A DNA stretch of 64,000 nucleotides from Turneriella sp. (GTDB taxonomy: Bacteria; Spirochaetota; Leptospiria; Turneriellales; Turneriellaceae), in assembly GCA_965279515.1 (NCBI GenBank), contig CBDIID010000003.1:864001-928000 (forward strand). Direction: 5' to 3'. The position numbers were made by a program, and so were the translations under genes. Shown here piece by piece: positions 24,989 through 50,890 of the stretch. Numbering within the stretch: the stretch's first letter is position 1; the number at the start of each line of letters is the position of its first letter. Under the pieces are notes generated by a model. It saw nothing but the letters and a program-made list of their open reading frames with translations, did no database searches and had not been told where the DNA came from.

Positions 24989-27900
24989 TTAGCCTGCTGT
25001 ATTTTCCACCGAATCAACTTTGATGCGGCGGCGGATCCGTGAAAACTCATCGTCCATGTCTGAAATCTCGACTGGTTTTTCGTCGCCGTCGAGGATCGTG
25101 ATGTCGAGTGCGAGCGAACGTATCTCACGGATGAGAACGTTGAAGCTCTCCGGCACACCCGGCTTAATGGCGTGGATGCCTTTCACAATCGATTCATATA
25201 CACGTGCGCGGCCTTGCATGTCATCCGACTTCACAGTCAGGAGTTCCTGCAAGGTATGCGCTGCACCGTAGGCTTCGAGTGCCCAGACTTCCATCTCCCC
25301 GAGACGCTGACCGCCGAACTGGGCTTTACCACCCAACGGCTGCTGCGTAACCAACGAGTATGGTCCCGTTGAACGGGCATGCATCTTGTCTTCCACCATG
25401 TGGTGGAGCTTAAGCATATAGATCGTACCGACAAACGCCGGCTGCTGGAAATGCTCGCCGGAGCGGCCATCGCGCAGGTGGATTTTCGAATCCGGGCTGA
25501 TTTTAGCCTTACCTGCATAACTCTGGATATCATCCCATTTCGCACCATCAAAGACCGGCGTTTCAAAGTAGATACCGAGTTCTTTGCCGAGATAAGCGAG
25601 CTGCGTTTCAAAGATCTGACCCAGGTTCATACGCGAAGGTACCCCGAGCGGATTTAAAACGATATCGATCGGCGTGCCATCGGGCAGCATCGGCATATCG
25701 GCTTCATTGAGAATTGTCGAGATAACACCCTTGTTACCGTGGCGTCCGGCCATTTTGTCGCCGACAGAAATTTTACGTTTCTGTGCAACATAAACCTTAA
25801 CGGCTTCCACGATTCCAGCCGGAAGTTCATCCCCCTCGTCGCGCTTGAAGCGGACGATGTCGACCACGATACCTGCATGGCCGTTGGGCACACGCAGCGA
25901 TGAGTCGCGCACTTCTTTGGCTTTTTCGCCGAAGATCGAGTGGAGCAGACGGTATTCAGGCGTCAGGTCAGTCTCCCCTTTCGGAGTTACCATACCGACC
26001 AGAATATCACCCGCACGCACTTCTGCGCCGACGCGGATAATACCTTCATCGTCGAGATCGCGGAATGCGCGCTCGCTGATGTTCGGGATATCGCGTGTGA
26101 TAATCTCGCGGCCAAGTTTTGTTTCACGTGCCTGGATTTCAAACTCTTCGATGTGGATACTGGTGAACGTATCGTTCTTCACGAGTCGTTCTGACAGAAT
26201 AATCGCATCTTCGAAGTTATAGCCATCCCATGGCATGAATGCCACGGTGATGTTCTTGCCGAGTGCAAGGCGGCCATAACGCGTCGCCAGGCCGTCGGCA
26301 AGAATTGTCGCCTTACGCGCATTGTTCTTGTTCGGCTGGTCGAGGCGACCCTTGATGATTTCGCCGGCGAGCAGGTCTCCGCGGTAGACGAAAGCGCCTT
26401 CTTTGGCAACAGCTTTCATCGCCCCCTGGAAGGTTTGCATCGGGAAATGATAGGTTTTCCCGTTTTCGGCTTCGAGCAGCATCTCGTTCTTATCGATTTT
26501 GATGATCTTACCGTTCTCAGGCGCATTGTGGCAACCCACCAGTGACTGGTGGTTCAGCGTCGTGCTTTGGTTCGTGCGCTTGAATTTCACAAGGCGGTAC
26601 TTATCTTTAGTACCGTCTTCGCGTTCGACTTCAATCGCATCGGCATCGACTTTGGTCACCATACCGTCGTGATCGGCGATGACGCAGACACCCGAATCAT
26701 AGGCGATCGGCAATTCCATACCGGTACCGACATAAGGCATGTCGGGGGTCAGCAGCGGCACAGCCTGGCGCTGCATGTTGGAACCCATGAGAGCGCGGTT
26801 GGCGTCGTCGTGTTCGAGGAATGGAATCAAACTTGTTGAGAGTGAAATAACCTGTGTCGGCGAAACGTCCATCAGGTGAATTTCTTCTGAAGATTTCAGG
26901 GGGAAATCCCCGCGGTAACGGCAGCTGATCAGCTTATCGAGGAATTCGCCATTCTCGCCGAGCGTGGCGTTTGCCTGCGCGACGACATAGTGATCTTCTT
27001 CGTTGGCGGACAGGAACATGGCTTTGCCTGTATCCTTACCCTTCTCTACCACGCGGTAAGGCGTTTCGACAAAACCATAGGGGTTCAGGCGCGAGTATGT
27101 CGCCATCGAGGTAATGAGACCGATGTTTGGGCCTTCCGGCGTCTCGATCGGACAAAGGCGCCCGTAGTGCGTGTAATGCACGTCGCGCACTTCGAACCCG
27201 GCGCGTTCCCGTGTAAGACCACCGGGCCCGAGGGCATTGAGGCGGCGCTTGTGCGTAATTTCAGACAAGGGGTTCGTCTGATCCATGAATTGTGAAAGCT
27301 GGCTTGCGCCGAAGAATTCATTCATGACCGCAGTAATAGGTTTAATCGAGATCAGCAGTTGCGGCGTCATGATGTCGACGTCGTTCATGCTCATACGCTC
27401 TTTCACCACACGTTCCATACGCGTGAAACCCGCTTTGAGTTGTGTCGTGAGGAGTTCACCCACGGTGCGCACGCGGCGGTTACCGAGATGGTCAATGTCG
27501 TCGTACTGGTAACCAGGAACTTCATGAATTAAGTTCACCATGTACTTGCAGGTTTCGACGATGTCGATCGGGCGCAGAGTCTGCATGTTTGCATCTTCGC
27601 CGAATTCGCCGGCGTTCAGGTGTTTGAAACGCGCGTTAATTTTGTAGCGACCGACGCTGCCCATGTTATAGGTTTTCGCGTCAAAGAACAGGCGCTGCAT
27701 CTCAGCGCTGGCGCGCTCGATGTTTTTCGTGCGTTTCTCTGCGTCGCCGTGGTCGGGGCTGTAATCGAGCGGCTTCTGGTGTTTAATGAACTCCATCAGC
27801 GCTTCTTCGGTCGAGTTAACGCCGTCTTTGTCGAGCGACGTGAACACCACACGGTGGTCAACGGAGCCTTTATTGACGAGAAGTTCGATCTTGTCGATTT

Positions 27901-28735
27901 TCGCGTCTTTGAGAATATCCAGGTTATCTTCATTGAGCGCCTGGCCTGCTTCGATGAGGATCTCCCCCGTTTCCGGGTGAGCGACGTCGGTCAGCGTACG
28001 GCGGCCGATAAATTTTGCCAGGGTCTTGGACTGCACACCTTTGATGACAACACTTTCAGCGTCATAGAACAGGCGCAGAATTTGCTCGTTTGTGCCATAG
28101 CCTAAGGCTTTCAGGAGAAGAGTGAACGGGAATTTTTTACGGCGGTCTATACGGGCAATGAGCAGGCCCTTGGCGTCCATTTCAAATTCAAGCCATGAGC
28201 CTTTATGGTCTGGAATGATACGCGAAGAGAAGATATTCTTCGCTTCGTCGAAGAAAATGAAGATACCGGGTGAGCGGTGCAGCTGATTGACAATAACGCG
28301 TTCAGCGCCGTTGATGACAAAGGTACCGGTGGGCGTCATCATCGGCAGGTCGCCCATGTAGACTTCCTGTTCGCGCACTTCACCGGTTTCGATGGCGATC
28401 AGGCGGATTGTAGCCTTGAGGGGAGCGGCGTATGTCAGGCCGTTGACCTTACAATCCCAGATGTCGCGTTTTGCCTCGCCGAGGGTATATTCCACGAATT
28501 CGAGCACAACGTCGCCGTTAGAGCTTTCGATCGGGAAACTGTCTTCAAACACCGACTGCAGACCGACGCGTTTGCGTTTCGCCATGGGCGTCTCGATCTG
28601 CAAGAACTCGTTGTACGAGATAGTTTGCACCTCAATCAACGGTGGTACATCCAGCGATTTGCGGATATTTCCAAAGTTGATGATTTTGAACGACGAGGTA
28701 TCCTCGCCGACTCTTACGACATTAGAATCAGACAT
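24989..28735 (-). CDS. rpoB: RNA polymerase beta subunit
   Basis: [47 protein letters not shown]. Confidence 0.99.
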
Positions 28736-28757
28736 TTTGCTCCTCTGGCCTCAGCAT

Positions 28758-28795
28758 AAAAAAACAATAAGCCCGCCGGGCATCCGCCCGGCAGG
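28758..28795 (-). terminator. Intrinsic terminator/attenuator between rplL and rpoB
   Basis: Minus strand CCTGCCGGGC-GGAT-GCCCGGCGGG followed by TTATTGTTTTTTT. Confidence 0.6.
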
Positions 28796-28832
28796 TTTTT
28801 GAAAAGAAATCAAGAAAAGAAAAAGAAAGTCA

Positions 28833-29204
28833 TTACTTGAGCGCGATCTTGCCGCCCAAGGCTTCGATTTCTTTTTTGATTTTTTCAGCTTCGTCTTTGG
28901 AAACGCCTTCTTTCAGAACGCCTGTACCGCCCTCAACGAGCTTTTTTGCGTCCATCAGAGGAAGGTTGGTGATTTCACGTACTTTCTTGATTGCATCGAC
29001 TTTCTTGTCGCCGCTGAAACCTTCGAGTACTACGTTAAATTCCGTTTTTTCTTCGCCTGCTGCAGCTGCTGCTGCCGCTGGTGCTGCTGCAACCGCTACC
29101 GGTGCTGCCGCTGAAATACCAAACTTGTCTTCCATTGCTTTGACAAGTTCTGCCGCCTGAACGATCGTCAGCGAACCAATTTTATCTAAGAGCTCCTGTA
29201 CCAT
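28833..29204 (-). CDS. rplL: 50S ribosomal protein L7/L12
   Basis: [29 protein letters not shown]. Confidence 0.98.
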
Positions 29205-29240
29205 ACTTTCTCCTTTAATCTTCCCGCTTTTATTAAGCCG

Positions 29241-29768
29241 TTAATTTCCGTTTTTTTCCGCCACACTCTTGATGCCGCGCGCCAGAGACGCGATGACATT
29301 GTTGAGTGTACCTGCAATTTTTGTCGCAGGCGAGTTGAGCATTGCGGCGATTTGTGCCAGAATTTGCTCTTTCGAAGGCAGATCAGCGATTGCTTTGACG
29401 CCCTTCGCGTCAAAGTAAGTGCTCTCCATAACCCCAGCCCTCAGGACAAGTTTATCATTGTCCTTGCTGAAATCGCGGAGCACTTTAGCGACAGCTGGAA
29501 CATCAGAGCCTGCAAATGCAATCGCATTCGGCCCTTTCAGTGTGCTGTCATAGGGGAAATCTTTCGCCACGCCCGATTCTTTGAGCGCAATGCTGAAGAC
29601 ATTATTCTTAACAACGGTATACTTTGCGCCTGCTTCACGCAATTTCTTGCGCAGCGCGCTGATAGCGACCACATCCAGGCCCTGGTATTGTGTAATGATA
29701 AAGTTGGGAGTGCTCTTGAGAGCCGCTGCGTATTCGTCTTTGAGGTTGGTTTTTTCTGCTGACGGCAT
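29241..29768 (-). CDS. rplJ: 50S ribosomal protein L10
   Basis: YQGLDV..LRKKLR, VVKNN, LPSKEQILAQ; synteny. Confidence 0.97.
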   Translation of the reverse strand: MPSAEKTNLKDEYAAALKSTPNFIITQYQGLDVVAISALRKKLREAGAKYTVVKNNVFSIALKESGVAKDFPYDSTLKGPNAIAFAGSDVPAVAKVLRDFSKDNDKLVLRAGVMESTYFDAKGVKAIADLPSKEQILAQIAAMLNSPATKIAGTLNNVIASLARGIKSVAEKNGN

Positions 29769-30451
29769 TAGCGCATTTCCTTGATGTTAATCTTAACGGC
29801 AGGTGTCATTGTGCCAGTGACGTACATCCCCACCACATAGTCGCCCTTCGCATCAGACGGTTTTTCTTTGAGAATAGTCTGGAAGACGATCTCAGCATTA
29901 TCTTTAAGCTGATCTGCATTAAATGAGAGCTTGCCCATAGGCACATGCACCACACCGGTCTTGTCGGCGCGGTATTCGATGCGGCCACTGGTAAGCTGTG
30001 CGATAATGCCTTTGATATCTGTCGTCACAGTTCCGGATTTTGGCTTCGGCATGAGGCCGCGCTTACCCAGAACCTGACCGAGCTTACCGACGTCTTTCAT
30101 CATGTCGGGTGTCGCCACGACGAAGTCGAAGTCGACCCAGCCGCCCTGCACCTTTTGAATCATGTCATCGTCGCCGACGAAATCCGCACCCGCCTGGCGT
30201 GCTTCTTCAGCCTTATCGCCTTTGGCAAAGACAAGAATTTTGACTTTTTTGCCTGTGCCATGAGGCAGCTGAACGATACCGCGCACATTTTGTGTGCTTT
30301 TGTAGCGGACGTTGAAATGCCCTTCGAGTGTAGAATCGAATTTTGTATAAGTGACATCTTTAAGAATCTTCATTGCATCGAGCAATGAGTACTCTTTATC
30401 AGGATTTACTTTTTCTGCCGCTGCGCGGTATTTTTTTCCGTGTTTTGCCAT
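29768..30451 (-). CDS. rplA: 50S ribosomal protein L1
   Basis: [29 protein letters not shown]. Confidence 0.98.
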
Positions 30452-30452
30452 A

Positions 30453-30884
30453 TTATCCGCCCTGGATGGTTACTCCCATCGAACGCGCCGTACCGGCGAT
30501 AATCAGTTTAGCCGCTTCAATGTCATTGGCATTGAGGTCTGGCATTTTTTGTTTCGCAATCGCCTCGAGCTGAGCTTGCGTCAGCGAACCGACTTTATCT
30601 TTATGAGGAATCTTCGAGCCGCTTTCGATTTTGGCAGCTTTTTTGATAAGGTCACTGGCAGGAGGTACCTTCGTGATGAACGTAAAGGAACGATCTGAAA
30701 AAACAGTGACAATCACCGGGATGATACTGCCGGCCTGAGCCTGCGTTTTAGCGTTGAACTGCTTGCAGAATTCCATCAGGTTGACGCCCTGAGGACCCAA
30801 GGCAGTACCGACCGGCGGTGCAGGGTTTGCCTTACCTGCCGGAATCTGGAGTTTTACCTGTGCTACGATCTTTTTTGCTGCCAT
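30453..30884 (-). CDS. rplK: 50S ribosomal protein L11
   Basis: [29 protein letters not shown]. Confidence 0.98.
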
Positions 30885-30943
30885 TTAAGAAACCTTAACC
30901 TGTTTGCGAGCTGCCATTTTGCAAAATTGCGACATACCGCAAA

Positions 30944-31480
30944 CTATATTTTACTTACCTGCAAGTAATCCAACTCAACCGGGGTAGCCCGGCCGAAAAT
31001 CTCGACCCTAACCCTGACTTTACCCTTTTCAGGGTTCACATCATCGATAGTGCCCTGGAAGTTAGCGAACGGACCATCGATAATCTTGACGATTTCGCCT
31101 TCTGCGAAGAAAATACGCGGGGTTTGCTTCTCGTCTGCCACTGCGGGGCCCATTTCCGTGAAAAGAGAATGCATTTCTTCTTCACTGAGAACCTGCGGCT
31201 CGGTGCCGGCACTGACAAAACCCATGATTCCGGGCAGCGCCCGGATACGGTGCTGCAGCTCATCGCTGAGGTCTGCCTCGATAAAGACATAACCTGGCAT
31301 GAGTTTCTTCTTTACTATACGCTTTTTACCGCCACGCAGCTCGGCCATTTCATGGAGAGGTATCTTCACCTGCCCCACTTTGGCGCCGTCGGGCCATTTG
31401 TCTTTCTGGCGCTCGAGCAGCTTTTTGACCTTGTCTTCATGCGAAGACAGGGTCGTCACGACGTACCAGTGCATTGCCAT
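30944..31480 (-). CDS. nusG: Transcription termination/antitermination factor NusG
   Basis: WYVVTTLS, PGYVFIE, KOW motif IDGPFANF, IFGRATPVEL; start placed at 31480 just after secE stop. Confidence 0.97.
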   Translation of the reverse strand: MAMHWYVVTTLSSHEDKVKKLLERQKDKWPDGAKVGQVKIPLHEMAELRGGKKRIVKKKLMPGYVFIEADLSDELQHRIRALPGIMGFVSAGTEPQVLSEEEMHSLFTEMGPAVADEKQTPRIFFAEGEIVKIIDGPFANFQGTIDDVNPEKGKVRVRVEIFGRATPVELDYLQVSKI

Positions 31481-31481
31481 A

Positions 31482-31667
31482 TCAACCACCGATGACGGTC
31501 CGGAAAACCCGGTCGATTCCGCCATCGACGACATAGATGAGAACGGCGAAAATGATGACCGTCACGAAAACAACGAGCGTTGAACGTGAGACGTCATCCC
31601 ATGAAGGCCATGTTGCCTTGCGGAGCTCAGCCCTCGCTTCGACTAAAAACTGCCATATCCTTTTCAT
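31482..31667 (-). CDS. secE: Preprotein translocase SecE
   Basis: ELRKATWPS plus one TM; upstream of nusG. Confidence 0.95.
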   Translation of the reverse strand: MKRIWQFLVEARAELRKATWPSWDDVSRSTLVVFVTVIIFAVLIYVVDGGIDRVFRTVIGG

Positions 31668-31716
31668 AGTGCTCCTTTACAAATCTCGGATCTCTGCAGA
31701 GAGATCCTTTCAACTT

Positions 31717-31787
31717 CAGGGCAGGAAGGAATCGAACCCTCACTAACGGTTTTGGAGACCGTCGTTCTACCGTTGAACTACTGCCCT
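31717..31787 (-). tRNA. tRNA-Trp (CCA anticodon)
   Basis: AGGGCAGTAGTTCAACGGTAGAACGACGGTCTCCAAAACCG...GGTTCGATTCC cloverleaf; 3' CCA not encoded. Confidence 0.95.
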
Positions 31788-31792
31788 ATTTT

Positions 31793-31865
31793 AGCCCACA
31801 ATCGGAATCGAACCGATGACCTTTTCCTTACCATGGAAATGCTCTACCGACTGAGCTATGTGGGC
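31793..31865 (-). tRNA. tRNA-Thr (GGT)
   Basis: GCCCACATAGCTCAGTCGGTAGAGC...CATGGTAAGG...GGTTCGATTCC. Confidence 0.95.
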
Positions 31866-31903
31866 CTTCGGCCCACATAGCTCAGTCGGCTACATAGGCT
31901 TTT

Positions 31904-31992
31904 CGGAGTGGGAGGGATTCGAACCCTCGGTACCGGTTACCCAGTACAACAGTTTAGCAAACTATCGCATTCGACCACTCTGCCACCACTCC
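31904..31992 (-). tRNA. tRNA-Ser (GCT)
   Basis: GGAGTGGTGGCAGAGTGGTCGAATGC...TTGCTAA loop, long variable arm. Confidence 0.93.
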
Positions 31993-32056
31993 AGGGACTC
32001 GGTCTGCGGCGAAGAGGGCATCCTGCCCGCCGCAGACCTTGCGCATCCCTGCGCTT

Positions 32057-32143
32057 CGGAGGAGGTAGGATTCGAACCCACGAGACCCGTGAAGGTCTAA
32101 CGGTTTTCAAGACCGCCGCATTCGACCACTCTGCCACTCCTCC
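32057..32143 (-). tRNA. tRNA-Ser (TGA)
   Basis: GGAGGAGTGGCAGAGTGGTCGAATGC...CTTGAAA loop, long variable arm. Confidence 0.95.
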
Positions 32144-32287
32144 TATGATTTACTATCCATGGTCGGATTTTCGGATCACCGAAAACCATGCGGACAATAA
32201 AAAAAGACCTCTCGGTCTAATCTTACACGTTTAGAGATTGAAACACAGCGTCAAACGAATAGTGGATTGAGGGCCGGTTCAGGCGCT

Positions 32288-32725
32288 TTAGATGGAGAAA
32301 CGGCCTTTCAACAGGTTCCAGACACCCAGAGTCGCGAAAGTAGGCAGGCTTTTTGCAAACTGCGCACCGATCGTCGCCCAGTCAAAATAATCGCGCCACA
32401 GCGTGATTTTACCGTTTTTGACCTCAAAGGTGCCACAAACCCAGAATTCCAGGCGGAGGCCCGGCCCCGAGAGAATATCTGTGCGCTCGGTGAGCACGGT
32501 GCCATCTTTCTCAGCGATATTATGCATAATAACTTCAAACTTTTTACTGATCAGCCCAAAACGTTTCAAGGTTGCGATCGTGGCAGCTTTACCGTCATCC
32601 GTAGGTAACGGCACGTTCTGGTACTGGACATTGTCGTCGAGAAGAGACTCCGCCTTTTCTAAATCGGAATCTTCGAGCGCCTTGAGGAAGTCGATGACGG
32701 TTTCGGTTGCTGTTGTTTTTGCCAT
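32288..32725 (-). CDS. Limonene-1,2-epoxide hydrolase family protein
   Basis: YQNVP, VLTERTD, WVCGTFEV.NGKITLWRDYFD. Confidence 0.9.
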   Translation of the reverse strand: MAKTTATETVIDFLKALEDSDLEKAESLLDDNVQYQNVPLPTDDGKAATIATLKRFGLISKKFEVIMHNIAEKDGTVLTERTDILSGPGLRLEFWVCGTFEVKNGKITLWRDYFDWATIGAQFAKSLPTFATLGVWNLLKGRFSI

Positions 32726-35582: not shown

Positions 35583-35939
35583 TCAACCCATATTCCCGGC
35601 GCGGGAATTGATCTTATCGAGAAAGTCGAAATCGAGATTCAGCGTTTCATCGCCGTCAAAATGGCTCTTGAGTTCGGCGTAGATAATGCCGGAAAAATGC
35701 TTCTTGTCGTTGAGTTGGGGATGGATTGAGTACTCCACCCACCTGCCCTGCTTATTATCTAATACGAGATCGGAATCGCGCAGGATGGATAAATGCTGGG
35801 AAATCGTCGGCATCGACAGGCGCAGCATGAGTTTAATGTCATTAACGACGAGCGGTCGGCGCGACAAAAGCGCTAAAATCCGCAGCCGCTGCTTGTCGGA
35901 GAGCGCTTTGAACATGCGTTCGTATTCGCGCAATTGCAC
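35583..35939 (-). CDS. ArsR/SmtB family transcriptional regulator
   Basis: FKALSDKQRLRIL, PTISQHLSILR..LV...GRWVEYS; no Cys residues. Confidence 0.93.
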   Translation of the reverse strand: MQLREYERMFKALSDKQRLRILALLSRRPLVVNDIKLMLRLSMPTISQHLSILRDSDLVLDNKQGRWVEYSIHPQLNDKKHFSGIIYAELKSHFDGDETLNLDFDFLDKINSRAGNMG

Positions 35940-35959
35940 ACTTAACGAAGTGGCGAAAT
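35940..35959 (-). promoter_or_regulatory. Putative ArsR-type operator, copy 1 (ATTTCGCCACTTCGTTAAGT)
   Basis: Abuts the arsR GTG start; TTGACA at 35974-35969; matches three other copies. Confidence 0.7.
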
Positions 35960-36014
35960 GAATCGGCGTGTCAAGTAGGTCAAATAATGGAAGATCTGAT
36001 TGTGAATCAAAAAA

Positions 36015-36041
36015 CGCCGTGTCCCCGTGCTCGCCGTGGTT
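36015..36041. repeat. Half copy of CACGG/CCGTG REP-like element
   Basis: CGCCGTGTCCCCGTGCTCGCCGTGGTT resembles an arm of the 37134 and 42728 elements. Confidence 0.6.
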
Positions 36042-36095
36042 CTCATTTTTTTAAGCCTTCTATTCATTCAATTGATAACCTGCTAACATATTTAT

Positions 36096-36115
36096 ACTTC
36101 GCTATTTATCAAAAT
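36096..36115 (+). promoter_or_regulatory. Putative ArsR-type operator, copy 2 (ACTTCGCTATTTATCAAAAT)
   Basis: Upstream of pstS in AT-rich promoter region. Confidence 0.65.
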
Positions 36116-36246
36116 AAAGATTTTCTCGCTGAGTCACCTGCCCATTATGTCCCCAAGCCGTATTAGAGTCCTGTGGAAGCCTCCACACGAGTCCAATACG
36201 GCCCGACGGGGGAAATCCCCCTCAAATGGAAAAGAAAGGAGAATGT

Positions 36247-37119
36247 ATGAAAACAGCAAAGATCATAGCCGCCCTGTCACTCGCGGCCCTCATTGCCTGC
36301 GGTAAAAAGGACGCGAGCCTTAAAATTGCGGGTTCAGACACGATGGTGCAGCTCGGCCAGACCCTGGCGAAGACCTACATGGAAGCAGATGCGAAGAATA
36401 AAGTTTCTGTTCAGGGTGGCGGCAGCGGCACAGGCATCGCGGCGCTACTCAACGGTTCAACCGACATTGCCAGCGCCTCACGTGAAATGAAACCCAAGGA
36501 ATGGGACCAGGCGAAGGCGAAAGGCCTCAATGTGAAGGAATATGTTGTGGCGCTCGACGCATTGGCAGTCGTGGTGAACCCCACAAACAAAGTCGCTAAA
36601 CTCACGATCGCACAACTCAGTGATATCTATTCGGGCAAAATCAGCAACTGGAAAGAAGTCGGCGGCGAAGATAAGGAAATCCTCGTGATTTCGCGCGAAA
36701 ACAACTCGGGCACGCATGTCTATTTCAAAGAGCATGTGCTGCGCCAGGGTAAAGAAGCGAAAAAAGACGACGCCAACCCGGACCCGCTGTCAAAACTCGA
36801 ATTCGGCAGCAAGGTCACCTACGGCGTTTCATCCCAGGCGATCGCTGACCAGGTGAAATCAAACCCGGCAGCCATTGGTTATTTCGGCATGGGTTGGATC
36901 ACCAAAGATGTGAAGGCCGTGGAGATCAGCAAGGACGGCAAAACCTTCTTTGCGCCGACCGCTGAAAATACTTCGAGCAAAAAATATCCGATCGCGCGCG
37001 GTCTGCAGATGTATCTCAACACCGCATCGGGTGAAAAAGGCCAAAGGTTCATTGACTTTGTGATGAGCGCTGCCGGACAAAAGGTTGTTAAAGACCAGGA
37101 TTTCGTTCCGGTTAAGTAA
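36247..37119 (+). CDS. pstS: Phosphate ABC transporter substrate-binding lipoprotein
   Basis: LIAC lipobox, IAGSDTM, GGGSGTG, IASASR, SRENNSGT, YPIAR. Confidence 0.95.
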   Translation: MKTAKIIAALSLAALIACGKKDASLKIAGSDTMVQLGQTLAKTYMEADAKNKVSVQGGGSGTGIAALLNGSTDIASASREMKPKEWDQAKAKGLNVKEYVVALDALAVVVNPTNKVAKLTIAQLSDIYSGKISNWKEVGGEDKEILVISRENNSGTHVYFKEHVLRQGKEAKKDDANPDPLSKLEFGSKVTYGVSSQAIADQVKSNPAAIGYFGMGWITKDVKAVEISKDGKTFFAPTAENTSSKKYPIARGLQMYLNTASGEKGQRFIDFVMSAAGQKVVKDQDFVPVK

Positions 37120-37133
37120 TCGGTATGAAAAAG

Positions 37134-37199
37134 ACCACAGCGATCACGGAGGACACGGCGATGAAACCAAATCGCCGTGCTCGCCGTGCCGCCGCGGTT
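37134..37199. repeat. CACGG/CCGTG palindromic REP-like element
   Basis: ACCACAGCGATCACGGAGGACACGGCG...CGCCGTGCTCGCCGTG; near-identical inverted copy at 42728. Confidence 0.75.
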
Positions 37200-37320
37200 A
37201 AAAATTCTATCGCCATTCAGCAAAATTGCCTTGAAAATCAAGGTCATTTTGCTAAATGACGAATAACGATGTACGCAAAGTCGAAGGGGCAATAGTTGGC
37301 CTGCGTACGAGGAGCTATCA

Positions 37321-38205
37321 ATGCAAAAGCGTAGCCGCATCGCAGAATATCTCATCGAAAAAGGCCTGATACGATTATCGGGTTATGCGGCCGTCGCCGT
37401 ATTGCTCCTGATTCTGTTCTTTATTTTGCGCGAAGGTCTGCCGTTCTTCGGCGTCTACAGCGCATCGGATTTCCTCTTTAAGACAGACTGGTATCCGCTC
37501 TCGGGCCGTTACGGCATGTTGCCGCTTCTCACCGGCAGCATCATGGTCACTGTATTGTCGCTCGCCGTCGCTGTGCCGATGGCGATCGGGACTGCAATTT
37601 TTCTCTCAGAACTTGCGCCAACACGCGTGAGAAGCATGTTCAAGGTGCTGCTCGAAATACTCGCGTCGATACCATCGGTGGTGTTCGGCTTTTTAGGTAT
37701 TATCTTCTTAGGTCCCTGGGTGCAAAAGACCTTTGGCCTGCAGACGGGCCTTAACGCCTTTAGCGCGGGAATCCTGCTTGCCTTCATGGCTTTGCCCACG
37801 ATTGCCAGTGTCGCCGACGAGGCGATGCAGGCAGTGCCGCGCAGTTTGCGCGAGGCATCGCTGGCGCTGGGCGCAAGCCGCATACAGACGATTTTCCGTA
37901 TCACATTCCCCGCTGCATCGTCGGGGGTCATCGCCGGCGTGATGCTCGGCATCGGCCGCGCGATCGGTGAAACCATGACCGTGATGATGGTCGCGGGCGG
38001 CTCTGCGCAGGTAACTCTCAACCCGATGGCGCCGGTGCGTACCATGACGGGCACCATCGCCGCGGAAATGGGCGAAGTCGTGATGGGCGACGACCATTAC
38101 CGCGCACTCTTTATGATCGGCTTGCTGCTTTTTGTCATCACGCTCGGCGTAAACACGCTCTCGGGCCTGATCATCGAGCGCATCCGCCGGAGGCAGGGAG
38201 CATGA
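37321..38205 (+). CDS. pstC: Phosphate ABC transporter permease PstC
   Basis: [26 protein letters not shown]. Confidence 0.95.
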   Translation: MQKRSRIAEYLIEKGLIRLSGYAAVAVLLLILFFILREGLPFFGVYSASDFLFKTDWYPLSGRYGMLPLLTGSIMVTVLSLAVAVPMAIGTAIFLSELAPTRVRSMFKVLLEILASIPSVVFGFLGIIFLGPWVQKTFGLQTGLNAFSAGILLAFMALPTIASVADEAMQAVPRSLREASLALGASRIQTIFRITFPAASSGVIAGVMLGIGRAIGETMTVMMVAGGSAQVTLNPMAPVRTMTGTIAAEMGEVVMGDDHYRALFMIGLLLFVITLGVNTLSGLIIERIRRRQGA

Positions 38206-39059
38206 TCGCGCGCAAGATTCGCGTCGGTGACGGCATCGGCTTAGCGTTTATTTATACGATGACTGCTCTCGTCTTCTTGCCTTTGGTAGGCTTTCTCGTC
38301 TATGTCATTGCAAAAGGTGTCGGGCGCATCAACTGGGAGTTCCTCTTCACCGCGTCTTCGTCGATGGAATCGGGCGGCATCTTTGCACCGCTGTACGGTA
38401 CGTTGATTTTAACTCTGGCTTCTCTGGTGGTGGCGGTGCCGATTTCACTTTTTGCCGCAGTCTATCTTTCAGAGTACGCGCGCAAAGACCGCTGGTTCCA
38501 GATTATTGAACTCACGATTGTCAACCTCGCTGGAGTGCCGTCGGTAGTTTATGGCCTTTTCGGCTTGGGACTCTTCGTTATTTTCTTTGGCCTCGGCAAA
38601 TCCATCATTGCCGGTGCGCTGACGATGGCCTGCATGTCGCTGCCGCTTCTGGTCACGGTTTTTTACCAGGCGCTCAAAGCGGTTCCCCTAACCCTGCGCG
38701 AGGCATCGCTGGCGCTGGGGGCGTCGAAACTGGCGACAACGTTTAGGATCGTGGTTCCGACAGCGCTTCCCGGTATTTTCACGGGCGTCATTCTCGCAAC
38801 CGCGCGTATTGCCGGCGAAACGGCACCGGTACTCTTTACGGTCGCTGCATACTACATGCCCAACCTGCCGCAGAGCCTTTCAGATCAGTCGATGCTGCTC
38901 TCTTACCATCTCTATGTCATCAGCACACAGAATACCGGGGTCAAAGACGAACAGAAGTTTGCCGTCACGCTGGTTCTGGTGCTGCTCGTGCTCCTCGTGA
39001 ACCTCATCGCCATCTGGGCGAGATCGCGCGCCCGCAAAAAAATCGGTAACCTAGGATAA
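38202..39059 (+). CDS. pstA: Phosphate ABC transporter permease PstA
   Basis: [23 protein letters not shown]. Confidence 0.95.
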
Positions 39060-39063
39060 TATT

Positions 39064-39849
39064 ATGGAAAAAGCCGCCACGGATGTAATTACAAAGCCAA
39101 TTCTAAAACTCGAGCAGGTCAATCTGCATTACGGCGACAACCATGTGCTGAAAAATATCAGTATGGACATCGCCGCTAACTCGATTACCGCCTTCATCGG
39201 CCCTTCAGGCTGCGGCAAGTCGTCGCTGCTGCGCTGCCTCAACCGCATGAACGACCTCATTGATACGACCAAGGTCGAAGGTAAAATCTTATTCGACGGC
39301 AAGATCGACATCAACGAACGCCGCATCGACGTCACGCAACTGCGCCGCAAGATCGGCATGGTATTCCAGAAACCGAACCCCTTCCCCAAATCGATCTATG
39401 AAAACATCGCCTACGGTATACGCATTGCGCAGGCGGCGCCAAAATCTGAAGTCGACGGCCGTATTGAAGAGGCCTTAAAAAAGGTCGGGCTCTGGAAAGA
39501 AGTTTCTGACCGCCTGAAAGATTCGGGGATGGCCCTCTCGGGTGGCCAGGCGCAGCGGCTTTGCATTGCACGCACGATTGCCACGAAGCCCGATATCATT
39601 CTGATGGATGAACCTACCAGCGCGCTCGACCCGATCAGCACGCAGACGATTGAAGAGCTTACGCTCGAACTCAAAGAAAACTACACCGTGGTGATTGTCA
39701 CGCACAACATGCAGCAAGCCGCGCGGATCTCGGACAGCACGGCATTCTTTTACCTCGGTGATCTGATTGAATACAGCCCGACGAAAGTCATGTTTACGCG
39801 TCCGCAACAAAAGAGAACAGAAGACTACATCACAGGCCGGTTCGGCTAG
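39064..39849 (+). CDS. pstB: Phosphate ABC transporter ATP-binding protein
   Basis: [37 protein letters not shown]. Confidence 0.97.
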
Positions 39850-39857
39850 GAGAAATT

Positions 39858-40484
39858 ATGCTCATCATCGAAAAAGCCCTCAAGGAACTCCGCGAAAACC
39901 TCAACTTGATGACCGAAGTGGTGCTCGACATGCTCGAGCTCGTCAAAAACTCGCTCGAACAGGAAAAGATCAACGAGCTCGAGGTTGTCTTCAAACAGGA
40001 TAAACACTTAGACCAGCTCGAAAAGGCCCTCGACCGCCAGTGCATGGAGCTGCTCGCACTCATCAATCCGCATGCGTCGGACCTGCGTTTTGTTTTTTCA
40101 GTGATCAAGGTCAACGTCGATCTCGAGCGCATGGGCGACGAATGCAAAAACGTCGCACGTGAGATGAAGGGTTACAGCGACAAAATACCACCTGAGATGA
40201 AACAACTGGCCGAGATGGTCTATGCCACTGCGCAGAAGACATTCCGCGCACTGAAGAATGACGATTCGAAGCTTGCGAAAGAGATTATTCTCGAAGATGA
40301 CGCCATCGACACACTCGAATACAATATCCTGCAAAAGTACCCGCAGATCGGCACCTCGTTTACCGCCAAGGCCCTCGAGCGCATCGCCGACCATGCGACG
40401 AATGTGGCTGAGAGCATCATCTATTCCGTGGAAGGTATTGACGTGCGCCACGAGAACACCATCAGACAGCGTATGGGAAAGTAG
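39858..40484 (+). CDS. phoU: Phosphate signalling protein PhoU
   Basis: DLERMGD, DDAIDTL, LERIADHATNVAE. Confidence 0.93.
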   Translation: MLIIEKALKELRENLNLMTEVVLDMLELVKNSLEQEKINELEVVFKQDKHLDQLEKALDRQCMELLALINPHASDLRFVFSVIKVNVDLERMGDECKNVAREMKGYSDKIPPEMKQLAEMVYATAQKTFRALKNDDSKLAKEIILEDDAIDTLEYNILQKYPQIGTSFTAKALERIADHATNVAESIIYSVEGIDVRHENTIRQRMGK

Positions 40485-40525
40485 CCCTTTGTTGCGCAGC
40501 ATAAAAAAGTGGCTGCGGCCTCAAC

Positions 40526-40545
40526 ATTTCGTTATTTTCCTAAAT
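40526..40545 (+). promoter_or_regulatory. Putative ArsR-type operator, copy 3 (ATTTCGTTATTTTCCTAAAT)
   Basis: 11 nt upstream of the ATG of the CBS/SpoIIE gene. Confidence 0.7.
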
Positions 40546-40556
40546 GAAGAATATAC

Positions 40557-41879
40557 ATGAAAGCAACAATGACAAAACTAACCAAAGAGACAGCCCCACA
40601 GTCCTGGGATGCCGAACTCACGCACGCGCTTGCCGTCGCCCGCAATATTCTCGAACAGCGTACCTGGCGGCAAAGCATCCGCGAAAACACTATCTTTTCG
40701 GCGTTCGAAGTCGGCAAGCTGGCCAACATCGCCATTGACTGGGTTTCGAACGAGACGGCGCTCAAAACCGTCGACGAACTCATACACGATTTCGGCATCG
40801 AGTTTTTTCCCGTACGCGCCTCGGGTAAATTTATCGGCTATGTGAAGCAGGAGAAATTCCGCGCGCTGCTGGGGCAGAACCAGTACAGCCGCGATATCTT
40901 TTTGCGCAGCGAAAATACCGTCATCGATGTTCTCGAAGAAGGTTTAGTGAGCGTCGATGCGCGTATGACTCTGCCTGAGGTGTCGCGCCTACTCATGGCC
41001 CGCGGCCGCGAGCAGCTCTATGATCCCTTCGTTATCACCTACCACGGCGAATATTACGGCGTCGCCACCGTTAAGGCCGTCATGGACGGCATCGCCTTCT
41101 ACGAGCAAAAAGATATCGCCGCCGCCCGCGAAGCGCAGCAGGCGATGAACAGCCCCAAAAAAAACAACCGGGGTATCTATGTCGATTATGACTTCTTTAT
41201 CGAGCAACACGGTGAAGTCGGCGGCGATTTTATCTATGCACAGGGCCTGAAACCCCATCTGACACTGTTCTCCGTGATGGACGTCTGCGGCAAGGGCCTC
41301 AAGGCGGCGCAGATGGCCATGGCGATGGGCGCCTATTTCCGCGCGATCTTCAAATATCTCTGCAAGACGGGTATCGATGCGGATTTCCGCAGTGTCAAAC
41401 TCTCGCAGCGCCTGAAAATCCTCAACACCATGCTGGCAAAATCGACGCCGTCCGATATGTATGCCTCAGGTGTCGTGCTGCTGCTCGATATCCGTAATAA
41501 TATTCTCCTTTACTTCGATTTCGGCCATACCCCGGTCTATGTGCTGCGCAACGGCAAGGTCATGCCGCTGCCGCGCGCAGAACACAACGAAGCCGACGGC
41601 TTCCCTTTCGTCGGTGTCGAAGAGCAGATGATCATCCGTTCGGTGCCGATACGCGTTAAATCGGGCGATGTCTTCATCGTCACCACAGACGGTATCGGCG
41701 AAACCCGCAACGAGATGCGCGAAGAATTCGGCGAAGACGGCATCATCCGCACACTGACCGGCCGTACATTTGAACACCCGACACAAGTGACCGAACTCAT
41801 GCGCACGGCACTGGCCAATTTCCGGGGCAAGTACCGAAGGCTCGACGATATGTCCTTCCTGAGCTTCATGGTGCCATAG
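40557..41879 (+). CDS. CBS-like domain + SpoIIE/PP2C-family protein phosphatase
   Basis: GEVGGDF, DVCGKG, TTDGI.E, DDMSFL; N-terminal CBS-like region (YDPFVITYHGEYYGVATV). Confidence 0.85.
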   Translation: MKATMTKLTKETAPQSWDAELTHALAVARNILEQRTWRQSIRENTIFSAFEVGKLANIAIDWVSNETALKTVDELIHDFGIEFFPVRASGKFIGYVKQEKFRALLGQNQYSRDIFLRSENTVIDVLEEGLVSVDARMTLPEVSRLLMARGREQLYDPFVITYHGEYYGVATVKAVMDGIAFYEQKDIAAAREAQQAMNSPKKNNRGIYVDYDFFIEQHGEVGGDFIYAQGLKPHLTLFSVMDVCGKGLKAAQMAMAMGAYFRAIFKYLCKTGIDADFRSVKLSQRLKILNTMLAKSTPSDMYASGVVLLLDIRNNILLYFDFGHTPVYVLRNGKVMPLPRAEHNEADGFPFVGVEEQMIIRSVPIRVKSGDVFIVTTDGIGETRNEMREEFGEDGIIRTLTGRTFEHPTQVTELMRTALANFRGKYRRLDDMSFLSFMVP

Positions 41880-41885
41880 GCACAG

Positions 41886-42704
41886 ATGTCTGAAAAGGTA
41901 AAAAAATTCCGCTTTAAAAAAGATACAGTTTACGACGCACTGTATATCTCCGATATCCATTACCTGCTGAAGAAGAAGGTCCGCAATCATATGCATAAAG
42001 ACCTCTTCAAAATGCTCGATCACCTGAAAAAACGCGGCGTGCGTTTCCGCAAGATTTTTCTTGTCGGCGATATCATTGAAAACTGGTATTTCAGCGCGCA
42101 GAGAAAACTCGTGCGCAAATTCGGTAAAAAACGCTTCAACAAGCTTTTCGACCGCTTCGACGCGCTCGCAACACCCGTTTCGCTCAAGGTTTACCTGATC
42201 GGCAACCACGACTCATTCAGCTATGTCGGCAGCCTGCCGCCGAAAATAGATCAGTACCTCAGGGAACGCGATTATGCGATCCAGGACCGCTATGAAAGCG
42301 AACGCCTGGTAGTATTGCACGGCCACCAGGGGCAATACACAAAATTTTCATGGTTCTTAAATATTCTCGGGGTGCGGCTTCTGCATCTACTGACGCATAT
42401 CTTTCCTTCGATTTTCATCACGATGGAAAATTTCTACCGCAAACATTTTAACTTCGACCGCAACGAGACCGAAGACGAGGTGCGCGAGTACTACGGCCTG
42501 CTGCGCGAACGCTCGAACCAGGGTAACCGCCTGCTGATCTGCGGCCATACCCACCAGGCGATGGCAGACCAGCGCCTGCGGGTTATCAATACCGGCGACT
42601 GGATCGAATCCGGCACGTTTGTCATCGAGCAGAACCAGGAATTTGTTGGTTTAGAGTTTAAATCGAAGAAGAAAATTCTGGAAAAATTCAACGTAAAACT
42701 GTAG
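41886..42704 (+). CDS. Calcineurin-like metallophosphoesterase, LpxH/PlcP-like
   Basis: ISDIH, LVGDIIENW, GNHD, LHGH, CGHTH, NTGDWIES. Confidence 0.85.
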   Translation: MSEKVKKFRFKKDTVYDALYISDIHYLLKKKVRNHMHKDLFKMLDHLKKRGVRFRKIFLVGDIIENWYFSAQRKLVRKFGKKRFNKLFDRFDALATPVSLKVYLIGNHDSFSYVGSLPPKIDQYLRERDYAIQDRYESERLVVLHGHQGQYTKFSWFLNILGVRLLHLLTHIFPSIFITMENFYRKHFNFDRNETEDEVREYYGLLRERSNQGNRLLICGHTHQAMADQRLRVINTGDWIESGTFVIEQNQEFVGLEFKSKKKILEKFNVKL

Positions 42705-42727
42705 CGCCTGGGAACCGTATCCTATGT

Positions 42728-42788
42728 AACCACGGCGAACACGGCGATTTGGATTTTTCCCGCCGTGCCCTCCGTGATCGCCGTGGTT
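42728..42788. repeat. CACGG/CCGTG palindromic REP-like element (inverted relative to 37134)
   Basis: AACCACGGCGAACACGGCG...CGCCGTGCCCTCCGTGATCGCCGTGGTT between convergent genes. Confidence 0.75.
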
Positions 42789-44012
42789 CTATCTTGCGGC
42801 AGCCTTACGGTAGATCTTTTCGAGCTTATCAGTGCACTTGTCATGCCCGTGATCCTGCGCAATTTCGATGGAGGCCGCTGAACACGCCTCATAGAGCGCG
42901 GCATCTTTCAGCAGGCGCACCGCCGCTTCGGCCATTTTGTGTATGTCATGGGCAGGCGGCGTAAAACCGTTGCGGCCATTCTGGATGAGCTCGGGCAGCG
43001 CATAGGCATCCACACCCACCGCTGGTAATCCCGTCGCAATCGCCTCGAGCGCCACAAGGCCCTGCGTTTCCATCGCCGAAGCGGTGATAAAGAGGTCATG
43101 GTCGGCATAGATTTGCGGCAGCTCGCCGCGCGATTTGTAGCCCATGAAGTTGATGCTGTCGGCGACGTTCAGTTCCGACGCTTCGCGCTTCAGATCGAGC
43201 AGCACCGGCCCGTCGCCGACCACGGTCAGAAGCGCATCGGGAATCTCGCGCTTGATGAGTGTAAAGGCGCGTATGACTTCTTCGGTATTTTTTTCGGGCG
43301 CAATACGGCCGACATGCAGAATACGCGGATGGCTGACCGGGAAATGGCGCTTCTCGCCGCGGAAAAAACGCAAATCGATACCATTCGAGACAACCGTCAC
43401 CGGCGCTTTGATCTGATGGTTGATGAGTTCTTTTTTTATCAGCTCGCTCGGTGAGATAACGATCTGGCATTTCTCATAGAGCCGGTTCGCGAGCTTAAAG
43501 AGCAGCTTGCCACCCAGCGATGCCGGCCTTTTGCGCGTCAGTTTTTCGAGTTTTGAGGCTATTTTTTTCTTGCGGCGGAAACGTGTGAGTAGTTTGTCGA
43601 GCTTCAAAAGCCTGAAAGGATTTACGTACATCCCCACTTCACTCATCATTGTGTGGTAGGTGCCAATCACGGGAATCGAATAAATTTTGCCCGCGGCGAC
43701 CCCATACTGCCCCATAAAGCCCGGCGTCTGGATATGGATGAGGTCGGGCTTAAAATCCTTAATCACCTTGTGCAGACGCGTGCGGCCGGGCACAATGATG
43801 CGCATTTCGGGGTATGAAGGCAATGCCACCGACTTGAAACGCTCAATGCGGATGTTCGCTCCCATGAGCTCGGTGTCATCGTCACCATAACGGGGACAGC
43901 AGATCACAAACTTGTGTCCCCTGCCCTCGAGTTTCTCGCAAAAGTTTTGCACCGAAACGGCGATCCCGTCGATTTTCGGAAAAAAGGAATCCGTGAAGAT
44001 GGCAATCCGCAT
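42789..44012 (-). CDS. GT4 family glycosyltransferase (diacylglycerol glycosyltransferase-like)
   Basis: MRIAIFTDSFFPKIDG, HIQTP, GTYHT, VGRIAPEKN, ETQGLVALEA. Confidence 0.88.
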   Translation of the reverse strand: MRIAIFTDSFFPKIDGIAVSVQNFCEKLEGRGHKFVICCPRYGDDDTELMGANIRIERFKSVALPSYPEMRIIVPGRTRLHKVIKDFKPDLIHIQTPGFMGQYGVAAGKIYSIPVIGTYHTMMSEVGMYVNPFRLLKLDKLLTRFRRKKKIASKLEKLTRKRPASLGGKLLFKLANRLYEKCQIVISPSELIKKELINHQIKAPVTVVSNGIDLRFFRGEKRHFPVSHPRILHVGRIAPEKNTEEVIRAFTLIKREIPDALLTVVGDGPVLLDLKREASELNVADSINFMGYKSRGELPQIYADHDLFITASAMETQGLVALEAIATGLPAVGVDAYALPELIQNGRNGFTPPAHDIHKMAEAAVRLLKDAALYEACSAASIEIAQDHGHDKCTDKLEKIYRKAAAR

Positions 44013-44020
44013 AATATATT

Positions 44021-44040
44021 ATTTCGCTAACTAACGAATC
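44021..44040. promoter_or_regulatory. Putative ArsR-type operator, copy 4 (ATTTCGCTAACTAACGAATC)
   Basis: 8 nt upstream of the GT4 ATG, downstream of minus-strand TTGACC at 44056-44051. Confidence 0.7.
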
Positions 44041-44081
44041 ATAATCTGCGGGTCAACCTAAAATGGTTAAACCCAAAACAA

Positions 44082-45214: not shown

Positions 45215-45799
45215 ATGAAATACATCCACCCCCTGCACCACCGAAAAACATCCGTGTCGCTGCCGCGCGCCTCTTACCGCCGTATGTGCGCGGCCCGTAA
45301 AATTTTTGCCCGTAACGGTATTTACTATTCCCGGCAGGAAATTTACCGCCGCCTGTTTAAGCTCTTCCTTAAGAACTGGCGCGGCCGCGGTGCAAAAACC
45401 AATGGTCTTCGGCGCTACAATGCCGATGGTAAGGATTTTGAAATCCACCCGCTCTATATCAATCAGGTGCTCTATGCGGCCCTCTGGCAGCGTGCGCTGC
45501 ATTCGGGTGAATCTATTTCACGCATGCTCGATGTGGCAATCCGTGTCTATCTGCCTCAGCTGCTGGAGAGCTTGTTGTTCTCGCCTCGGCCGCAAGCGAC
45601 TTTGACTAAGAACATTCGGTATTGGACGATGCGCTACTGCCAACGGAAGAATCAACAACCGGACTTTTTCATTAACTACCTCTGTCATACGCGGATGAAT
45701 GACGGAAGCGGCCTGGAATATTCGCAAAGTATGCAGATTATCTCCAAAGCAGGCCTTTCGCCCATGCAGATTTGGGACTTGTTACACCGGGCGGCGTAA
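45215..45799 (+). CDS. Putative ribbon-helix-helix (DUF1564-like) protein, paralog of 11203..11763
   Basis: TSVSL...HSGESISRMLDVAIRVYL. Confidence 0.6.
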   Translation: MKYIHPLHHRKTSVSLPRASYRRMCAARKIFARNGIYYSRQEIYRRLFKLFLKNWRGRGAKTNGLRRYNADGKDFEIHPLYINQVLYAALWQRALHSGESISRMLDVAIRVYLPQLLESLLFSPRPQATLTKNIRYWTMRYCQRKNQQPDFFINYLCHTRMNDGSGLEYSQSMQIISKAGLSPMQIWDLLHRAA

Positions 45800-50736: not shown

Positions 50737-50890
50737 AAAAAACAGTTCAGGGATTTCGTAAACAACCGATACTAATTATGTCACATAAGGCGCGTTAGCG
50801 CCCTTAGACACCTGCCAAGGACGGCAGGTAAAGATCAGGCATGGATGCCCCGGGATTTTCAAAGAAAATCCGCTGAACTAAAGGAGCAAC

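Follow-up and report, generated by a model that had tools for sequence, protein, structure and literature searches.

A candidate PhoB-independent phosphate regulon under a cysteine-less ArsR-family protein in Turneriella

The stretch of Turneriella sp. DNA analyzed here (hereafter the window: 64,000 nucleotides, forward-strand positions 864,001 to 928,000 of contig CBDIID010000003.1, assembly GCA_965279515.1) carries a pstSCAB-phoU phosphate transport locus with a small, divergent arsR gene (Table 1). Copies of a 20-bp palindrome precede arsR, pstS and other genes of the locus. We propose that these are operators of a phosphate regulon that would be repressed by the 118-residue ArsR protein rather than run by the usual PhoB/PhoR pair. 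A preliminary description of this DNA had listed four palindromes (sites 1 to 4 in Table 1), and all four 20-mers lie where it placed them, at the distances from the arsR start and from the two ATG codons that it gave. Its consensus pattern also holds overall, although site 1 fits only when read on the minus strand. With up to three mismatches allowed, the same pattern has 12 matches in the window versus 4.45 expected, and none of 100 shuffles reached 12. The idea of a four-copy operator needs revision, however, because a fifth site before pstC was overlooked and the regulon is genome-wide, with about 14–18 sites.

Table 1. Genes, putative operators and promoter-like elements of the locus (window coordinates; operator scores in bits)
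Feature	Position	Strand	Evidence or remark
arsR, 118-aa Cys-less ArsR/SmtB winged-helix protein, proposed master regulator	35583..35939	-	Pfam HTH_5 and NCBIfam NF033788, above cut-off; GTG start at 35939
Site 1, weak operator abutting arsR start (self-site)	35940..35959	-	11.5 bits, genome rank 61
TTGACA, -35-like hexamer 9 nt before self-site	35969..35974	-	Putative function
Site 2, operator upstream of pstS	36096..36115	+	21.8 bits
pstS, phosphate-binding lipoprotein	36247..37119	+	TIGR02136, above cut-off; open frame from 36226
Fifth operator, upstream of pstC	37246..37265	+	21.8 bits
pstC, pstA, pstB, Pst permeases and ATPase	37321..39849	+	Named from sequence and place between pstS and phoU
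phoU	39858..40484	+	TIGR02135, above cut-off
Site 3, operator 11 nt before CBS/SpoIIE gene	40526..40545	+	24.7 bits
CBS-like plus SpoIIE (PP2C-type) phosphatase gene	40557..41879	+	ATG at 40557; SpoIIE E 7e-28
Metallophosphoesterase, candidate PlcP-like phospholipase	41886..42704	+	Pfam Metallophos
GT4 glycosyltransferase, candidate glycolipid synthase	42789..44012	-	ATG at 44012; convergent with preceding genes
Site 4, operator 8 nt before GT4 start	44021..44040	-	21.4 bits
TTGACC, -35-like hexamer 10 nt before GT4 operator	44051..44056	-	Spacing kept in orthologs; putative function

The frequency of the motif in the genome was assessed with two matrices. The first, a symmetric matrix built from the window's four sites, gives 11 positions above 20 bits when scanned over the 4.84-Mb contig, 10 of which lie outside crude open reading frames. 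The mean for 30 column-permuted matrices is 0.5 (maximum 5), so the genome-wide matches are far above background, as the preliminary description had anticipated. The second matrix, built from 65 sites of relatives, yields 14 matches above 20 bits compared with 0.4 (maximum 3) for 20 permutations. Since its training sites come from orthologs of those same targets, this matrix sharpens the first scan but does not replicate it independently. The motif, a 20-bp palindrome with the consensus ATTTMGYYAWWTRRCKAAAT, has an information content of 23.6 bits over 78 distinct sites, and it is symmetric also when the sites are oriented to their genes. Under a matrix derived solely from the sites of relatives, window sites 2, 3 and 4 and the pstC site reach 21.4–24.7 bits and occupy ranks between 6 and 13 in the genome. 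Two weaker matches in the window, at 30916 (14.6 bits, ahead of rplK) and at 50753 (5.1 bits), were left out of the site count. A scan for sigma-70 promoters and terminators gave results at chance level, and no RNA holder is listed for the region.

The top matches precede phosphate-scavenging genes, where the preliminary description expected them, and phosphorus-sparing genes. Outside the window, the targets include a phosphate-selective porin of the OprO/P kind, a TonB-receptor operon (exbB-exbD-tonB, the TonB-dependent receptor, a beta-helix lipoprotein and a second PstS-family protein), an OlsF-like protein (ornithine-lipid synthase), a secreted non-specific nuclease, an LTD/NucT-like (NucT/PLD-like) operon and an RPE65-ppk1 operon. 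Also among them are an operon with START and EAL-CBS-GGDEF genes that has a divergent STAS gene, an Orn/Lys/Arg decarboxylase and a SpoIIE-TPR gene. No arsenic genes occur among the targets examined, and PhoX and PhoA were not found in the genome. The OlsF-like protein scores 573 bits against NF052615 (cut-off 620), spanning positions 30–569 of the 570 in the model, with a query sequence that was truncated at the N-terminus. In other bacteria, olsF is described as following a PHO box or PhoB control (PMC12971839), and plcP is described as often adjoining an agt-type glycosyltransferase gene with PHO boxes (PMC4796936). The window may hold a pair of the latter kind. Its metallophosphoesterase, for which searches of NCBIfam and PDB gave no match, is a candidate PlcP-like enzyme on the basis of its GT4 neighbor (compare PMC4796936) and of sequence motifs. 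The best NCBIfam match of the GT4 protein is monoglucosyldiacylglycerol synthase (144 bits, cut-off 400), and the CBS domain of the CBS/SpoIIE protein is a weak match (E 0.003, below cut-off).

Relatives were surveyed for the sites and for the ArsR protein in 34 genomes of the order (20 in the family, one from another family, called G023, and 13 in five other families), and seven Leptospira-class genomes were also compared. G000 denotes the genome of the window, and other G numbers denote those of relatives. A site lies upstream of pstS in all 14 genomes tallied, before the CBS/SpoIIE gene in 7/7 relatives' loci and before the GT4 gene in 5/5 untruncated loci. It precedes pstC in seven relatives and is absent in four where pstC closely follows pstS. 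Full-length olsF has a site in 15 of 15 cases among the family genomes and G023 (lowest score 13.7 bits), whereas olsF of an ArsR-lacking family has one in neither of two genomes; the two homologs with only the GNAT part, in G015 and G019, lack one. G011, a near-complete genome of the genus, shows most of the same targets. Conservation of the sites in relatives was thus borne out for the Turneriella group, but the predicted range had wrongly extended to Leptospira. Exact-pattern matches in the Leptospira-class genomes number 2–7 each versus 0–4 for the control, the one match followed precedes no phosphate gene, and the TonB-receptor loci of these genomes, which are mostly operon-internal, have no upstream site.

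In G015–G019, where no close ortholog of pstS turned up, the motif stands before a long PHO4/PiT transporter gene and before ppk1 (5/5 each). The PHO4 promoters and four of these ppk1 promoters were absent from the matrix training set. That the transporter differs while the motif stays the same is the best sign that the regulon concerns phosphate. A table of 45 selected promoters was also compiled, with 14 bits as the threshold for a site. Sites are present in 18/21 promoters of ArsR-positive genomes, in 4/4 of G017 and in 0/20 of ArsR-negative genomes (maximum 9.6 bits). The table omits genus ppk1 loci whose operon start lies beyond the locus, ppk1 of G010, G013 and G014, the short PiT genes of G000 and G011, the pstB-phoU operons of G015 and G019, and the Leptospira-class TonB-receptor loci. 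The palindrome very probably marks a phosphate regulon.

The preliminary description noted that no phoBR is adjacent, and indeed none is present in the region read and none of the four OmpR-type regulators of G000 lies within the window. Two of the four are CreB and a KdpE-like protein, and the other two have no firm assignment. In a comparison of 41 genomes (at most 53 candidates scored per genome), the best PhoB-model score in G000 is 200 bits. No score above 210 bits occurs in the 20 family genomes or G023, and none of the 19 ArsR-carrying genomes has a PhoB-like regulator above 200 bits. In contrast, a regulator of 231–255 bits is found in 11/11 genomes of two ArsR-lacking families. For the subset examined, three of these regulators and four partner kinases, the best matches are PhoB and PhoR/PnpS. 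In G023 and G001, the top PhoB-model matches are CreB and a heavy-metal regulator. A PhoB/PhoR-like pair is seen in members of the order and class without this ArsR but not in its carriers, and Turneriella-group genomes appear to be without the usual PhoB/PhoR switch.

Direct-repeat PHO boxes were sought as three simple repeat patterns, none of which occurs in the four window promoter regions. An 11-nt TTAAC direct repeat, whose core was chosen after seeing the sequences, lies before pstS in 3/4 PhoB-like genomes examined (L071, L072 and L074), and these repeats are candidate PHO boxes. With the same post hoc core, the repeat reaches 9–10/10 in three PhoB-like genomes versus 6/10 in G000; the ArsR-positive genome G002 also has 9/10.

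The ArsR protein matches PF01022 with 45.9 bits (cut-off 22) and NF033788 with 79.2 bits (cut-off 55), which identifies a winged-helix ArsR domain, and scores 63.3 bits against the SdpR autorepressor family NF033789, below the cut-off of 100. Its structure model (pLDDT 90) has the ArsR fold, with CzrA, SqrR and HlyU as top Foldseek matches. It belongs to a discrete clade, in that four representatives at 50% identity score 187–200 bits and the next protein 117. Members occur in 19/34 genomes of the order (18/20 in the family, G023, and 0/13 in the five other families), whereas the best match in the seven Leptospira-class genomes has an E value of 8e-13 or weaker. A scan of metagenomes gave four close orthologs among 11 loci, and no plasmid homolog was found at E 1e-15. 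Residues 1–72 average 76% identity over 23 homologs, compared with 36% for the remainder.

Canonical arsenite sensors of this family carry C-(V/A)-C in helix 3 as described in PMC11672702. The protein has no cysteine at all, as the preliminary description had stated, and neither this motif nor another three-Cys site is present; invariant VVN replaces CVC. V31 and N33 are found in 24/24 clade members, 20 of which lack any cysteine, and no cysteine is conserved. Among the nearest 123 relatives outside the clade, cysteine is present at position 31 in 110 and at position 33 in 111. K16 and Q17 are invariant in the clade and rare outside. In a quick tree, the family forms one clade (SH-aLRT 99) that is placed among CVC proteins with weak support (82–86). 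The protein probably descends from arsenic sensors.

The genomic setting of the gene varies. Most genus genomes have arsR divergent from pstS; in G010 a porin gene lies between them, in G013 pstS and the porin gene flank arsR, and in G023 arsR is within a pstCAB-phoU-arsR-porin run beside the TonB-receptor cluster. In total, arsR adjoins pst or porin genes in four gene orders and is away from pst in 6/19 loci. A separate feature of G023 (L038:5259-6324, G023:C27) is that pstS lies on the opposite strand inside a co-directional TonB receptor-lipoprotein-pstCAB-phoU-arsR-porin run; no inverted repeats were found flanking it. The pstS/pstC gap of this genome has no scoring site and contains a near-palindrome that resembles the operator except that its spacer is shorter by one base.

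Ten ArsR-family paralogs are encoded in the genome, and a site lies near the start of this one alone. The preliminary description stated that ArsR/SmtB repressors bind such dyads over their own promoter. The putative self-site here is degenerate and is the weakest site. In 14 loci of the genus and a sister genus it keeps the same position, with scores from -1.7 to 15.7, and TTGAC(A/G) lies 9 nt before it in 14/14, including two in which arsR is not beside pst. Two unrelated SdpR-like ArsRs of other genomes have ATTTAG-N8-CTAAAT before their own genes (seven regions and two loci examined), so the motif belongs to an ArsR operator class. It is highly probable that this ArsR binds the palindrome. 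Another transcription factor could instead bind a genuine phosphate-regulon motif, with arsR as a mere target or neighbor, and the weak or absent self-sites, the arsR loci away from pst and the motif-bearing genomes G001 and G017, in which no ArsR was detected, would all fit. However, these two genomes are only about 83–84% complete, the motif is of the ArsR self-operator class, and no other ArsR paralog has a site. OmpR-type regulators are described as binding direct repeats, not dyads (PMC4415409), and the regulon's own MarR protein and a 102-residue unknown were not found in five motif-bearing genomes, in searches that lacked a positive control genome. A different binding factor is unlikely.

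Several observations nevertheless weigh against an ArsR-controlled phosphate regulon. The self-site reaches only 11.5 bits and is absent in 5/19 ortholog loci, and G001 (84% complete) and G017 (83%) carry good sites although no ArsR was detected in them. Moreover, the ArsR-positive genomes are close kin, so their co-occurrence with the motif is not independent. G023 has its arsR in the pst run, yet pstS, pstC and PHO4 lack sites there (the three misses in the promoter table); its sites precede only the TonB receptor gene, olsF and a few other genes. No site was found upstream of the pstB-phoU operons of G015 and G019, the short PiT genes of G000 and G011, or the one PhoD-family gene of G000, and ppk1 of G010, G013 and G014 scores 1.2, 7.3 and 10.4 bits. 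Strong sites also precede genes without a clear phosphate role (the Orn/Lys/Arg decarboxylase, SpoIIE-TPR and RPE65/fadH). Finally, two of the OmpR-type regulators of G000 lack a firm assignment, and the curated PhoB cut-off is reached in 0/41 genomes, so PhoB absence rests on relative scores.

The conserved non-phosphate targets could indicate a different cue, such as arsenate, envelope stress or general starvation, with phosphate genes forming only part of the response, as with the arsenite-induced pst1 of Agrobacterium 5A. The ArsR1 precedent (PMC7965956) and an ancestry among CVC arsenite sensors point the same way. However, the arsenite ligands are lost in 24/24 clade members, and the Cys-bearing ArsR encoded in the genome lacks a site (5.8 bits). 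With lipid replacement, ppk1, nucleases and PiT among them, the targets fit phosphorus economy, and no PhoB-like pair was found that could handle the response to phosphate. Such a cue is very unlikely.

The placement of the sites relative to promoter-like sequences suggests how control might be exerted. For short-leader genes, a -35-like hexamer ends 9–11 nt before the site in 14 of 32 related rows, and for other genes such a hexamer starts 4–6 nt after the site in 18 of 52 rows, again related. The short-leader promoters (olsF, GT4, CBS/SpoIIE, second pstS and arsR) would thus have the operator over the -10 element and start site. In the window, the TTGACC spacing would put the GT4 operator over the -10 element, and the hexamer before arsR would make its transcript leaderless. 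At the other promoters (pstS, porin, TonB receptor and ppk1), the operator would lie at about -41 to -60, in the UP-element region upstream of -35. We propose that ArsR binds the palindrome and blocks RNA polymerase at both promoter classes, repressing when phosphate is plentiful and releasing when it is low, in place of PhoB/PhoR. An operator over the -10 element implies repression. Starvation should raise expression of olsF and the glycolipid pair, and binding at high phosphate with release at low phosphate is therefore the simplest model.

If the same ArsR were instead a dual regulator, it would bind in starvation, activating the promoters with upstream sites and shutting those whose -10 is covered. 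The two distinct site positions are compatible with this arrangement, and the position at about -41 to -60 suits an activator. However, olsF and the glycolipid pair would then be switched off in starvation, whereas elsewhere they are described as PhoB-induced (PMC12971839, PMC4796936), and the ArsR sensors reviewed in PMC11672702 are described as losing DNA binding on sensing. Dual regulation is improbable, and control by this ArsR is most probably repression. A PhoB-independent Pho regulon repressed by a Cys-less ArsR is likely as a joint claim, and the analysis supports the ArsR-run, PhoB-independent regulon of the preliminary description. Computed are the motif, its targets, their conservation, the co-occurrence with ArsR, the complementary spread of PhoB-like pairs and the change from CVC to VVN.

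ArsR itself would sense a cytoplasmic proxy of phosphate, which may bind at the remodelled arsenite site (invariant K16, Q17 and N33). That this site binds phosphate is a guess, and the ligand is the least supported step of the model. Three motif-bearing genomes, G016, G017 and G018 (88, 83 and 99% complete), yielded no PhoU. For this reason, direct reading by ArsR is favored, and a relay through PhoU was set aside as a general mechanism. A predicted complex of the ArsR dimer with PhoU scored 0.02, with controls not folded. It is conceivable, though doubtful, that an arsenite sensor was rewired into a direct cytoplasmic phosphate sensor whose old site binds phosphate or a proxy as co-repressor, and that this one protein replaced the PhoB-PhoR-PhoU relay across a spirochete lineage, even where PhoU and PstS were not found.

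In reviews, PhoB-type two-component systems are presented as the controllers of bacterial phosphate regulons, and the sensing of internal phosphate is described as a subject of continuing study (PMC11208175, PMC11389368). The Turneriella system seems to work like a Pho regulon but not of the PhoB kind, under an ArsR that is apparently not an arsenite sensor. It shares target kinds with the PhoB/PhoR regulon as described in PMC4415409 (pstSCAB-phoU, a phosphate porin, ppk, olsF, and a candidate plcP with a glycosyltransferase gene), but the 11-nt direct repeats given there contrast with a 20-bp dyad here, and a one-component repressor is proposed where no two-component pair was found. ArsR1 of Agrobacterium tumefaciens 5A is reported to bind between pstS1 and phoB1 and to repress both (PMC7965956). 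However, according to that source its signal is arsenite and its target an accessory pst/pho locus, with the formal starvation response run from a separate pho/pst2 locus; the Turneriella protein is Cys-less and its motif spans the whole phosphate gene set. PhnF of Mycobacterium smegmatis is described as a one-component repressor divergent from the phosphate ABC transporter that it represses, but it belongs to the GntR family and controls one operon locally (PMC7866108), whereas the regulon here is genome-wide. The closest sequence relatives are the canonical arsenite-sensing ArsRs, which have the same fold and C-V-C (PMC11672702) in place of V-V-N. In the literature consulted, which covers few subscription papers, we found no report of phosphate regulation in Turneriella or of a genome-wide Pho regulon under an ArsR. 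If the model is true, then a full Pho regulon would be under one 118-residue one-component protein that is apparently PhoU-independent. This would offer a simple system for testing direct sensing of cytoplasmic phosphate, and an example of an arsenic sensor that has been put to use for phosphorus.

The motif would also assign genes of unknown role to phosphorus scavenging: the TonB receptor and beta-helix lipoprotein, the CBS-PP2C phosphatase and the LTD/NucT operon. The receptor and lipoprotein (L031:11819-16269; G000:C3 ~1151800-1156300) are conserved to Leptospira-class genomes, are under the motif here, and form a candidate importer for organic phosphorus or nucleic acid. The operon with lamin-tail and NucT/PLD-like domains (L032:5815-11997 and L240; G000:C3 ~25800-32600) lies behind a conserved site and is a candidate extracellular DNA-scavenging unit. 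The Orn/Lys/Arg decarboxylase (L035:6741-9128, L056:10430-12810) has a strong conserved site, adjoins arsR in G007 and in one metagenome locus, and may govern ornithine supply for ornithine lipids. A strong site precedes a TauE/SafE-family exporter gene in two genus genomes (L225:2214, L235:2235); tblastn at E 1e-10 found no homolog in G000. Sites lie near HAMP-SpoIIE-TPR phosphatase genes at L063:12523 (G018), L064:11178 (G015) and L175:284 (G023). The recurrence of PP2C phosphatases and a STAS gene among the targets hints at a partner-switching branch.

Two further features of the window were noted. A short GC-rich intergenic repeat, REP-like or terminator-like, occurs at 36020-36040, 37150-37200 and 42730-42790, with 3–8 copies genome-wide by pattern. 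Between olsF and an M14 peptidase gene, positions 45215-45799 encode a 194-residue protein without a Pfam match, which has a paralog at G000:C3:4793959.

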